Part shown: positions 45,343 to 52,289 of the stretch, in pieces
How positions within the stretch are numbered: the stretch's first letter is position 1
Layout of the letters: each line of letters begins with the position of its first letter
Source: Syntrophaceae bacterium UBA2251
Lineage (GTDB): Bacteria; Desulfobacterota; Syntrophia; Syntrophales; UBA2251
DNA length: 64,000 bases
Direction: 5' to 3'
Assembly (NCBI GenBank): GCA_002347815.1
Contig: DDXV01000016.1
Coordinates: 3,909 to 67,908, forward strand
Notes under the pieces: generated by a model
The model's database searches: none
Told to the model about the DNA's origin: nothing
What the model saw: only the letters and a program-made list of their open reading frames with translations
Made by a program: the position numbers and the translations under genes

Positions 45343-46950
45343 TCAGTCCGTGATGCCTTTGTGCGCCAGCGCCGCGGCGATGAAGCGGCTGAACAGCGGG
45401 TGGGGCGCCGTGGGACGGGACTTGAATTCCGGGTGGAACTGGCAGCCCAGAAACCAGGGATGGTCGCCCAGTTCGACGATCTCCGCAAGGCGTCCGTCCG
45501 GTGACGCGCCGGTGATTCTCAAGCCCTTCCGCACCAGGAGGTCCTTGAGGTCGTTGTTGAATTCATAGCGGTGGCGATGACGCTCGCTGATCTCGCCCTC
45601 GCCGTAGGCGGCAAAGGCCAAGGAATCCGCATCGAGCACGCAGGGGTAGGCCCCCAGGCGCATCGAGGCGCCCTTCTCCTTCACTTCACGCTGTTCGGGC
45701 AGGAGGTCAATGACCGGATACGGGGTGGCGTCGTCGAACTCGGAGCTGTTCGCCCCGTTCAGACCGCAGACGTGCCGGGCGTACTCGACCACCGCCATCT
45801 GCATGCCCAGGCAGATGCCGAAGTAGGGGATCCGCCGGGTCCGGGCGCACTGCGCGGCCAGGATCATCCCCTCGATGCCCCGGTCGCCGAACCCGCCGGG
45901 GACAAGGACCCCGCCGGCGCCGTCCAACAGGTGGCCGACGCCGTCCTTCTCGATCCGCTCGGCATCGACGAAGCGCAACTGCGCCCGGCAGTCGTTGGCG
46001 ATCCCGCCGTGGATGAGGGCCTCGTTCAGGCTTTTGTAGGAATCCGTCAGGTTCACGTATTTCCCCACGATCGCGATGGTGACCTCGTGGGCGGGGTGGG
46101 TCATCCTGTCCACCACGTCCTCCCAGGCCTCGAGATGGGGCTGGCCCGTCCAGATGTTGAGGAGATCGACGATTTGACGGTCCACCCCCTCGCGGTGGTA
46201 ATTCAGCGGCACTTCGTAGATGCAGGAGACATCCCGGGCGGCAAAGACGGCCCCCACCTCGACGTTGCAGAACAGGGAAATCTTCGCCTTGATGTCCTCC
46301 GACAGGGACTGCTCGGACCGGCACAGCAGGATGTCCGGCTGGATGCCGATCTCCCGCAGGGCCTTAACGCTGTGCTGGGTGGGCTTCGTCTTCACCTCGC
46401 CTGCCGTCTTGATGAGGGGCACCCACGTCAGATGGATGAAGATGGCGTTCTGGCGGCCGACCTCGTTGCGGAACTGGCGGATGGCCTCCAGGAAGGGGAG
46501 GCTCTCGATGTCGCCCACGGTGCCGCCGATCTCCACGATCGCGACATCGTATCCCGCCGCGGTCCTGCTGATGAAGTCCTTGATCTCGTTGGTGATGTGG
46601 GGGATGACCTGGACGGTCTTGCCCAGATAGTCTCCCCGGCGCTCCTTGGTGATCACGGAGAAGTACACCTGCCCCGTCGTCAGGTTGTTGGCCTTGCTCA
46701 TCCGGGTGGAACAGAAACGCTCGTAATGGCCCAGATCGAGATCCGTCTCCGCCCCGTCGTCCGTGACGAAGACCTCGCCGTGCTGGAAGGGGCTCATCGT
46801 CCCGGGGTCCACGTTGATGTAGGGATCGAGCTTCTGGTTCGACACCCTCAGGCCCCGACACTCGAGCAGGGCCGCGATGGACGCCGCGGCCAGGCCCTTC
46901 CCCAGAGAGGAGAGGACCCCGCCGGTGATGAAGATGAACTTTGTCTTCAT
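45343..46950 (-). CDS. pyrG: CTP synthase
   Basis: [30 protein letters not shown]...HITNEIK...[15 protein letters not shown]...HRHRYEFN. The start overlaps the upstream stop by 4 nt. Confidence 0.96.
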
Positions 46951-51029: not shown

Positions 51030-52289
51030 TCAGCGGCACTCCGGAAGGATCGAAAGAGACCGATCCACGACCGTGTCGACGATGTCCCGCAGCCACGCCG
51101 TTCCGGCCGCCGCCGCCGCCGCGTCCAGGGACTGCACGACGGCGAGATATCCGGATGTTCCGGCCGCCTCGGCGATGCGTTTCACGAATGCCTCGCGCCT
51201 CGAAGGCGCCGTCGATGCCTCTTCGCCCGACGTCAGGAACGCCTTGAGCCGGGGCCAGCCGGTCAGGAGAGCGCGCTGCTGCCGGACGATGGACGCGCAC
51301 GCCGTCGCGTCCGCCCGTGACTCCAGACACCGGAGCGATGTCTCCATCTTTTCGGCCAGGGCCTCGAACCGGACGATGCGTTCGGCCAGGGCCGACTCCA
51401 GAACCTGCGTCGCCCCGTCGAAGAGCGCCGCCCCCAGGTCCTGGCTCCGGAAAAAGGGCTGACGGACGTGGAGATACCACTGGCGAAGCGCGAGGAGATT
51501 GGCGATATAATGCAGATTGTTGAGAACGCGACGGCGGATGTCGCCGTACAGGCCGGGCGTAAAGGGTTGGCGGACGTCGCGGCCGGTCGCCGACAGGAGC
51601 GCGCCGCCCTCCGGACAATCGCCCCGCCAGACCGTCCCGGCGGCGATGACGGTCCCGTAGCCGATGCGCGCCGGCCCCACGAGCCCGCCCTGCCCGCCCA
51701 GAAAGATCGGGGGCGCCTTCAGCATGACGCCCCGGGGGACGTCCCCCAGGAGGGACGCGGTCGCCTTGTCCTGCTGCGGCGTGTAGTTGAAGTGGATATA
51801 GGAGCTGCCCACCTCGCTGTGGTTCTTCCGGCTGGTCCCGCCCGCCATGAAGCAGTCACAGAAGTTGATCAGGCTCCCCAGGGTGACAAAGGGAAACAGG
51901 AGGGTCTGCTTGAGGCCGACGGTGTGGCTGCCATTCGCCTCCTCCTCCAGGAGGCACCCCTCCCGCACCTGGGCGCCGCTCGCCATGTTGGCCTTTTCCA
52001 GGAACACGGACGACTTGAAAAATCCCCCCTTGAGCTCCACCCCGGGCCCAAGCAGGCAATCGCTGAGACTGACGGGGGCTTCCTGCCCCAGGCGACATCC
52101 GGCGGCGATCAGGGTCCGGGCGCCGGAGATCCGCGTTCCGGCATGGAGCACCACGCCGTCGCCCGAAATCCGCCCGGGATCGACCTCTTCACCGACCTCC
52201 ACCGTCTGGGGGAGGGGCATGCGCACGCCCCGGGCGAGCAGTCTTTCGACCTGGGGGGACAGACGGTTCCGTTCCTGCATGCAATTCAC
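51030..52289 (-). CDS. Putative left-handed beta-helix (hexapeptide-repeat-like) protein with helical C-terminal half; function unknown
   Basis: The N-terminal half has repetitive short beta-strand-like segments (VVLHAGTRISGARTLIAAGCRLGQEAPVSLSDCLLGPGVELKGG...GGQGGLVGPARIGYGTVIAAGTVW). It resembles a GlmU C-terminal-type acyltransferase by eye only. Confidence 0.45.
   Translation of the reverse strand: MNCMQERNRLSPQVERLLARGVRMPLPQTVEVGEEVDPGRISGDGVVLHAGTRISGARTLIAAGCRLGQEAPVSLSDCLLGPGVELKGGFFKSSVFLEKANMASGAQVREGCLLEEEANGSHTVGLKQTLLFPFVTLGSLINFCDCFMAGGTSRKNHSEVGSSYIHFNYTPQQDKATASLLGDVPRGVMLKAPPIFLGGQGGLVGPARIGYGTVIAAGTVWRGDCPEGGALLSATGRDVRQPFTPGLYGDIRRRVLNNLHYIANLLALRQWYLHVRQPFFRSQDLGAALFDGATQVLESALAERIVRFEALAEKMETSLRCLESRADATACASIVRQQRALLTGWPRLKAFLTSGEEASTAPSRREAFVKRIAEAAGTSGYLAVVQSLDAAAAAAGTAWLRDIVDTVVDRSLSILPECR

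Follow-up and report, generated by a model that had tools for sequence, protein, structure and literature searches.

Introduction

Glucosamine-6-phosphate synthase, GlmS, carries out the committed step to UDP-N-acetylglucosamine (UDP-GlcNAc), and hence to peptidoglycan and lipopolysaccharide. Besides being a target of antibiotics, the enzyme is a classic example of regulation by RNA. The Escherichia coli enzyme (608 amino acids, aa; PDB 1jxa, 2j6h and 4amv; TIGR01135) consists of an N-terminal nucleophile (Ntn) glutaminase domain followed by a two-SIS isomerase domain, and its C-terminal tail must close over fructose 6-phosphate (Fru6P), upon which the ammonia channel forms and the glutaminase is switched on. 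Here we analyze a gene in a 64,000-nucleotide stretch of DNA from Syntrophaceae bacterium UBA2251 (positions 3,909 to 67,908 of contig DDXV01000016.1, referred to as the window), which encodes a protein with the same order of domains as E. coli GlmS and twice its length. This protein and its relatives are referred to as GlmS-long. An earlier note on this DNA, made from the sequence, had described the protein as GlmS-like with an inserted and extended architecture, and had proposed for it either a non-canonical hexosamine or aminosugar-nucleotide branch or the role of a regulatory amidotransferase.

Three other groups of proteins are relevant for the comparison. The eukaryotic enzymes GFAT1 and GFAT2 (approximately 680-700 aa; PDB 6r4e and others) belong to the GlmS family and also carry extra sequence, and GFAT is controlled allosterically at the protein level, by UDP-GlcNAc feedback and by phosphorylation of an inserted loop. 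Ntn catalysis requires the free alpha-amine of the nucleophile Cys, and some Ntn amidotransferases are made with a propeptide, which has 11 residues in PurF of Bacillus subtilis and approximately 36-42 residues in the large subunit of glutamate synthase; a propeptide is not known from any GlmS. Finally, the C-terminal acetyltransferase domain of GlmU is a left-handed beta-helix (LbH), a fold that it has in common with the product of the gene next to GlmS-long in the window.

GlmS-long is an uncharacterised architectural variant of a well-known enzyme, widespread and poorly annotated. From its sequence, we consider it likely that this lineage of proteins of approximately 1150-1290 aa is a catalytically competent GlmS, which most likely feeds the normal route from GlmM to UDP-GlcNAc for the cell envelope.

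Results and Discussion

The catalytic core is that of GlmS

Conservation was determined in an alignment of the window protein with 120 relatives (121 sequences) and E. coli GlmS; the E. coli sequence used agrees with the PDB alignment. The GlmS elements named in the earlier note are present, with CGFAGI at residues 40-45, RGRDSAG at 230-236, HTRWAS at 344-349, NCHP at 357-360 and NGDIDNY at 392-398, and both SIS halves align with residues 92-588 of E. coli GlmS. As encoded, the Ntn motif is not at the N-terminus, the nucleophile being residue 40. The glutaminase residues C40, R230, G231, D233, R346, W347, H359, N392, G393 and D419 are invariant in the 121 sequences, and GlmS-long has equivalents of Cys1, R26, D29, R73, W74, N98, G99 and D123 of the E. 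coli enzyme. The isomerase motifs GTA, TQSGTT, VASTKAF, IKLSE (K485/E488) and KKH (H504) are also kept. Among these, TQSGTT, VASTKAF, K-x-x-E and KKH are invariant in the same alignment, and the E. coli residues Q348, S349, T352, K485, E488 and H504, together with VASTKAF, all have equivalents.

Comparison with known structures leads to the same family. The best sequence matches in the PDB are GlmS and GFAT1, which are about equal in strength, and besides these only smaller SIS proteins were found; Pfam recognizes GATase_6/7 and a single SIS domain. The AlphaFold model of residues 1-560 has a predicted local distance difference test (pLDDT) score of 88.9 and a predicted template modelling score (pTM) of 0.88. 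In Foldseek, this modelled N-terminal half matches the glutaminase domain of GlmS (1xff) with an E-value of 1e-13 and a target-normalised TM-score of 0.76; the matches were Ntn amidotransferases only, and none of them assigns a fold to the first helical insertion. Besides the core, GlmS of the E. coli type and GlmS-long have in common the lid motif AK(S/T)VTV and the operon linkage to glmM.

Added modules and an internal lid motif

The difference from E. coli GlmS lies in the added modules. The helical insertion that had been noticed after the Ntn motif is confirmed, with 159 aa placed after strand 1 of the glutaminase domain. AlphaFold predicts helices at residues 65-78, 81-85, 112-129, 132-158 and 165-199, with pLDDT mostly above 90. 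Across 81 diverse sequences, E169, D180, W183 and D188 are near-invariant, the last three of them within the motif K179-D180-x-x-W183-x-x-x-x-D188, and the occupancy of this insertion in distant members is 0.84. Smaller inserts in the glutaminase domain are found at approximately aa 240-300 and 361-385.

The long C-terminal extension described in the earlier note is also present, but it is not one block: it consists of a second helical insertion of 115 aa (AlphaFold helices, pLDDT approximately 85-95), an internal lid motif, and a domain of approximately 190 aa with PAS-like features. The lid segment, containing HQAKTVTVG, was aligned by MAFFT to the C-terminal PRNLAKSVTVE of E. coli GlmS, which places K1054 at the position of E. 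coli K603. In E. coli GlmS this segment is terminal, whereas in GlmS-long it is internal, being followed by approximately 215 residues. Conservation in the protein peaks here, with an identity of 0.98 within the clade and of 0.88 to distant members. When modelled without the isomerase domain, the lid has a pLDDT below 50, as would be expected of a docking loop.

The C-terminal domain is predicted to contain two strands, helices and three strands (AlphaFold pLDDT approximately 82-94), and carries the conserved motifs GYTLY, SR, GTK, GxGKxDG, LLLxH and NEYNxxW. Nearly all of its top Foldseek matches are PAS, LOV, GAF or Cache sensor domains, and it has the strand-helix order in common with sensor domains such as those of KinD (4jgo), RsLOV (4hj4) and NreA (6k2h), although the similarity to PAS, GAF and Cache domains is not significant and comes without a sequence-profile match. 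Pfam searches with the isolated first insertion and with both halves of the C-terminal extension gave nothing usable, and a PDB search with the family profile returned only GlmS, GFAT and other SIS proteins, with nothing matching the added modules; no solved structure and no Pfam model covers them. Nonetheless, all added modules are kept in distant members, with occupancies of 0.84-0.99, and conservation is strong along the whole length of the protein. The additions of GFAT are different in kind, given that they are short loops, that the C-tail remains terminal, and that GFAT has neither a PAS-like or helical domain nor a propeptide.

A leader precedes the nucleophile in the Desulfobacterota clade

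GlmS-long of the Desulfobacterota clade differs from E. coli GlmS also by a leader, which in the window protein places 39 aa before the nucleophile Cys. In their annotations, relatives from this clade have a homologous leader of approximately 30-50 aa, in which an FP motif is conserved. The leader is absent in distant members, and 18 of the 31 aligned distant representatives start with MCG. Because the Cys needs a free alpha-amine and the clade that bears the leader has kept every glutaminase residue unchanged, we infer that the leader is a propeptide. In the proenzymes of PurF and glutamate synthase, the Cys of a class-II glutaminase likewise lies behind a leader that is removed to expose the nucleophile; the leader of GlmS-long is unrelated in sequence to either of theirs, and its processing would be analogous.

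Distribution and annotation

A search of 1.84 billion cluster representatives at E<=1e-30 yielded 618 clusters of GlmS-long, many of which have 1120-1260 aa and can be aligned over their full length at 35-48% identity. Species-representative genomes were also scanned with a degenerate DNA pattern for HQAKTVTVG, and the matches were checked by tblastn. The pattern was found in at least 120 species genomes, and all 120 of the matches listed were confirmed as family members. The listed matches are mostly from Acidimicrobiia (Ilumatobacteraceae, Microthrixaceae, Iamiaceae and Acidimicrobiaceae). Other Actinomycetota with GlmS-long are Micromonospora, Kineosporiaceae and Pseudonocardiaceae, and the Desulfobacterota that have it are Syntrophales (including a genome bin of Syntrophus aciditrophicus), Smithellaceae and Desulfobacterales. 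It is also found in Planctomycetota, including Brocadiaceae, and in Riflebacteria. A GlmS of double size is conserved in at least three phyla, with carriers that include abundant Acidimicrobiia of wastewater and soil, such as relatives of Microthrix, syntrophic Desulfobacterota and relatives of the anammox bacteria.

Named homologues come from Planctomycetota and Blastococcus (WP_200489571.1). Public labels are limited to "SIS domain-containing protein" or to automatic GlmS annotation, and a search of the literature for this architecture found neither a description nor a defined function of the family. Given that pipelines use the label "SIS domain-containing protein", metabolic reconstructions based on curated GlmS models could mis-score the pathway as incomplete.

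Some relatives are larger still. GlmS-long regions also occur within giant proteins of 2900-4000 aa (P0373, of 4006 aa, from a JGI metagenome, and P0386, P0376, P0382 and P0387). P0373 also has an LbH/Hexapep_GlmU region at approximately residues 2860-3005. This region was compared with LbH419, the family of the LbH protein encoded next to GlmS-long in the window, and neither BLASTP nor the family profile gave a significant match. For this reason, a "Rosetta stone" argument that links GlmS-long to LbH proteins is valid at the level of domain class only. A GlmS-long relative of 1795 aa occurs in locus L008 (1-21388, GCA_947085655.1) among other oversized metabolic proteins, namely a 1436-aa FBPase_3 protein and a protein of 2059 aa that combines a 2-hydroxyacid dehydrogenase with a MOFRL glycerate-kinase region; enzymes seem to be systematically enlarged in this organism. 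Beside the copy of Micromonospora sp. NPDC050686 lies a GlmS-like gene (L016, 2-835) that is convergent to the long-form gene and was read in its C-terminal part, corresponding to the SIS isomerase region. It had been suspected to be a canonical glmS, but the tail of this part (...PRGITKVTHT) is not that of canonical GlmS.

Genomic context across lineages

The open reading frames (ORFs) that flank GlmS-long were clustered in all fetched loci, and the neighbors were named from their translated sequences. The dominant neighbor is glmM: in 30 of the 52 distant loci with enough upstream sequence, it directly precedes GlmS-long in the same orientation. Mainly in loci of Acidimicrobiia, rpoA, rplQ and truA recur upstream, and nnr (yjeF), alr, tsaE, tsaB and rimI recur downstream. 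Locus L064, for example, has the order glmM, GlmS-long (starting with MCGII), nnr, alr. In actinobacteria such as Mycobacterium tuberculosis (Rv3441c glmM, Rv3436c glmS, Rv3433c nnr, Rv3423c alr), the canonical glmS presumably holds this position. Judged by gene position, GlmS-long is probably the housekeeping copy in Acidimicrobiia and Syntrophia. Two further loci had no informative neighbors.

Loci of Syntrophales have a core order of moaC, a membrane protein with a bacterial PH-like (bPH) domain, a Fis-like HTH_8 protein, in some cases the LbH protein, GlmS-long and pyrG. In 12 of the 16 close relatives with enough downstream sequence, pyrG follows GlmS-long directly and in the same orientation; adjacency of the LbH gene was found only in some Syntrophales. 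The predicted overlap of the GlmS-long stop with the pyrG start is indeed an ATGA, which is also present in locus L001 and not in L004. The order is GlmS-long, pyrG, glmM in L040 and L055, and HTH_8, GlmS-long, LbH, glmM, nagB-like in L014. Desulfobacterales have pyrG close by, but frequently in convergent orientation, and its coupling to GlmS-long is therefore a synteny confined to Desulfobacterota and no trait of the family.

Proposed mechanism

In the Desulfobacterota clade, GlmS-long would be made as a proenzyme from which the 39-aa leader is removed, probably autocatalytically as in other Ntn amidotransferases, thereby freeing the alpha-amine of Cys40. Glutamine would then be hydrolysed in the Ntn domain, and the ammonia would pass to Fru6P bound in the two-SIS domain. 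The internal AKTVTVG loop, with K1054, would act both as lid and as provider of the Schiff-base lysine, the part played by the C-tail in the E. coli enzyme. Given that the lid would be tethered between a helical and a PAS-like module, and that a second helical module would be placed beside the N-terminus of the glutaminase, the added modules probably control both the closing of the lid and the ammonia channel upon binding of a small ligand, which would amount to built-in allosteric control. Such ligand-controlled gating appears to be the most economical role for the additions. The ATGA overlap would serve to co-express GlmS-long with CTP synthase in this lineage. Of the roles first proposed for the protein, that of a regulatory amidotransferase thus survives in the form of a catalytic GlmS with added, probably regulatory, modules.

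Taken together, these elements allow a more comprehensive reading, which we put forward tentatively and with more doubt than the catalytic assignment itself. GlmS-long would be a self-regulating enzyme, in which a ligand-binding PAS-like domain and two helical modules, wired to the lid and to the N-terminus of the glutaminase, gate the ammonia channel on a pathway metabolite or nucleotide, and so replace control by RNA (the glmS ribozyme, GlmY/GlmZ). In Desulfobacterota it would be a zymogen with a propeptide of approximately 40 residues, the first for GlmS, and in Acidimicrobiia, Syntrophia and some Planctomycetota it would have taken the place of the canonical enzyme. Should the added domains prove to be allosteric sensors, and the leader a propeptide, this would represent a new and directly testable control of amino-sugar flux, and a naturally occurring case of a regulatory domain tethered to the lid of an enzyme that channels ammonia.

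Alternative explanations

Several observations weigh against the assignment of GlmS-long as a working GlmS of the envelope route, or against parts of the mechanism. It scores 255.6 bits with PRK00331 and 227.5 bits with TIGR01135, against cutoffs of 381 and 418, respectively; these scores are low because the large insertions split the match, and they are the reason for the public name "SIS domain-containing protein". Some residues of the substrate shell have changed relative to E. coli GlmS, with H77 replaced by V, T76 by S, S303 by A and S347 by T. The Cys is encoded at a non-N-terminal position, the codons ahead of its TGC being GTT TTT TTC, with no start codon adjoining, and the leader would have to be cleaved off. 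The likeness of the C-terminal domain to PAS domains is weak, given that the best Foldseek E-value is 8e-3, that none is at or below 1e-3, and that target-normalised TM-scores do not exceed 0.47. The probable housekeeping role is read from gene position. Finally, some members may be specialised paralogues, given that the copy of Blastococcus lies within a cell-wall polysaccharide cluster.

The last of these points leads to the alternative that fares best, although we consider it unlikely, namely that GlmS-long works as a specialised amidotransferase in a non-canonical branch of aminosugar or nucleotide-sugar metabolism, where it would act with the LbH protein on a product other than housekeeping glucosamine 6-phosphate, or in the supply of a dedicated polysaccharide pathway. 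The homologue of Blastococcus is indeed surrounded by UDP-sugar dehydrogenases, epimerases, glycosyltransferases and a LytR-CpsA-Psr gene. The LbH gene adjoins GlmS-long in several Syntrophales, on either side, the 4006-aa metagenomic protein carries both GlmS-long and LbH/Hexapep_GlmU regions, and the scores with the GlmS models under threshold would also be compatible with a changed function. Nonetheless, the residues for Fru6P binding and catalysis are invariant. The LbH gene is not in the neighborhood in most lineages, even in some Syntrophales, the LbH419 family profile fails to match the LbH region of the giant protein, and the dominant neighbor across phyla is glmM, accompanied by the housekeeping genes rpoA, rplQ and truA upstream and nnr, alr, tsaE and tsaB downstream. 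The adjacency of glmM supports the link to hexosamine that had been proposed at the outset, while this adjacency and the invariant catalytic residues speak against the non-canonical branch that had been proposed with it.

A second alternative, to which we give somewhat less credence, concerns the leader of the Desulfobacterota proteins. If this were retained, the glutaminase would be silent or differently used, and GlmS-long would act as an ammonia-dependent glucosamine-6-phosphate (GlcN6P) synthase or isomerase. The absence of a start codon at the Cys is compatible with this, as is the model, in which the leader is folded against the glutaminase domain with a pLDDT of 83-87. Such anaerobes often live in ammonium-rich digesters, and a homologue of nagB is linked to the GlmS-long cluster in L014 and L019. 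However, the residues for glutamine binding and the oxyanion, and the Cys itself, are invariant in the leader-bearing clade, which would not be expected for a dead glutaminase, and propeptides are generally known in Ntn amidotransferases such as PurF of B. subtilis and glutamate synthase.

The unusual size of GlmS-long, the recognition of mere fragments by Pfam and its public name might suggest a pseudoenzyme that descends from GlmS and serves as a non-catalytic sensor or scaffold, or else an artefact of gene calling or fusion. This is hardly credible in view of the invariant catalytic set, the strong conservation over the whole length, and an intact ORF whose architecture recurs in at least 120 species genomes and in 618 representative clusters. 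The reading of GlmS-long as a catalytically competent GlmS is therefore the one that we retain.

Gene organization and features of the window

The minus-strand ORF at 46947-51014 is intact. The best start for GlmS-long is the TTG at 50768, preceded by GGAGGG at a distance of 6 nt, with a product of 1273 aa. Alternative starts are a GTG at 50813 (1288 aa), which is the one used for P0001, a metagenomic protein with 97% identity, and a TTG at 51014. The ATG of pyrG is preceded by GAGGAG 7 nt upstream. The coordinates of all features are presented in Table 1.

Table 1. Features of GlmS-long and of its neighbors in the window (aa, residues of the 1273-aa product)
Feature	Position	Strand	Description and basis
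GlmS-long coding sequence	46947..50768	-	1273 aa + stop; ORF, ribosome-binding site, relatives of ~1250 aa
39-aa leader, putative propeptide	50652..50768	-	precedes the nucleophile Cys; conserved FP motif
Cys40 codon	50649..50651	-	equivalent to the E. coli GlmS Cys1 nucleophile; invariant in 121 sequences
Helical insertion 1 (aa 50-208)	50145..50621	-	AlphaFold helices; after strand 1 and ahead of helix 1 of the glutaminase domain
Class-II (Ntn) glutaminase core (aa 209-555)	49104..50144	-	Pfam GATase_6/7; Foldseek to 1xff
Linker and two-SIS isomerase domain (aa 556-930)	47979..49103	-	alignments to structures of E. coli GlmS and human GFAT1
Helical insertion 2 (aa 931-1045)	47634..47978	-	AlphaFold helices; between last SIS helix and lid motif
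Internalised GlmS C-tail-like lid (aa 1046-1062)	47583..47633	-	MAFFT alignment to the E. coli C-tail
C-terminal alpha/beta domain, PAS-like strand order (aa 1070-1255)	47004..47561	-	AlphaFold; weak Foldseek matches
ATGA overlap, GlmS-long stop TGA / pyrG start ATG	46947..46950	-	read from sequence
pyrG (CTP synthase, 535 aa)	45343..46950	-	NCBIfam, 840 bits
LbH protein, 419 aa	51030..52289	-	N-terminal half left-handed beta-helix, GlmU C-terminal-like; then 185-aa helical region
Fis-family HTH_8 protein, 98 aa	52329..52625	-	Pfam HTH_8, E 2e-10
Membrane protein with bacterial PH-like domain, 171 aa	52663-53178	-	immediately upstream of LbH/GlmS-long genes in Syntrophales
glmM	27353-28702	+	NCBIfam, 599 bits, over cutoff
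NagB (glucosamine-6-phosphate deaminase) homologue	28811-29839	+	nagB, 132 bits vs cutoff 237, split match

An Rfam scan of the whole window found no glmS ribozyme and no other Rfam family, no tRNAs were found in the window, and a scan of 45000-54000 for sigma-70 promoters found none. Two strong terminator-like hairpins with T-runs are present within the coding region. One of them, CCCCGTTTTCAACGGGG followed by T7, is located at 50660-50676 (-) and ends 2 nt before the Cys40 codon, and a second one, at 50386-50419 (-), has a 14-bp stem followed by T8 and is located within helical insertion 1. The region contains 15 sites that resemble intrinsic terminators, versus 6.5 +/- 2.3 in shuffles. Given that the Phe-Phe codons behind the T-runs are not conserved among homologues, these hairpins are probably incidental.

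The LbH protein and other neighbors

The 419-aa protein encoded upstream of GlmS-long had been taken for a left-handed beta-helix, possibly an acyltransferase of the GlmU type. The fold assignment held in profile searches, with a match to the NCBIfam glmU model (E 1e-9) and to GlmU in the PDB (E 1e-3), and BLASTP aligns the protein with residues 236-425 of E. coli GlmU (approximately 200 residues, E 1e-9). The acyltransferase activity is unproven: equivalents of GlmU R333, K351, N386 and Y387 are kept, but the catalytic residues are not conserved, with His363 replaced by S139 or F143, Glu349 by G125 and Ser405 by G199, in either alignment. Compared with GlmU, the protein also lacks the N-terminal uridyltransferase domain, since no nucleotidyltransferase domain was found in it, and has in addition a helical tail of 185 aa that matches no family. 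Pfam gave no match at threshold for the protein. The LbH419 family is large and very well conserved.

The HTH_8 gene is conserved just upstream of the cluster in Syntrophales (L001, L002, L004, L014, L054 and L067), and its product is a candidate local regulator. The genes glmM and nagB-like had been noticed elsewhere in the window, and both are found there, side by side on the plus strand; in the relatives with loci L014 and L019, the two share an operon with GlmS-long. The NagB homologue has an insertion of approximately 50-60 aa that splits the match to the nagB model. Given this insertion, and the presence of the homologue and GlmS-long in the same operon in L014, both enzymes that interconvert Fru6P and GlcN6P in this Syntrophales lineage are, as read from their sequences, insertion-bearing variants.

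Other parts of the window, at 1436-25155 and 30973-34964, were read from translations. They contain a long minus-strand run of genes for acyl-CoA dehydrogenases, an enoyl-CoA hydratase, a 3-hydroxyacyl-CoA dehydrogenase, flavin (FAD) oxidoreductases, and thiolase-like proteins that are paired with small zinc-ribbon/OB-fold proteins, and also a cluster that encodes an FHA protein, a Ser/Thr kinase and a PP2C phosphatase. This predicted gene content is in keeping with a syntrophic bacterium that degrades fatty or aromatic acids.

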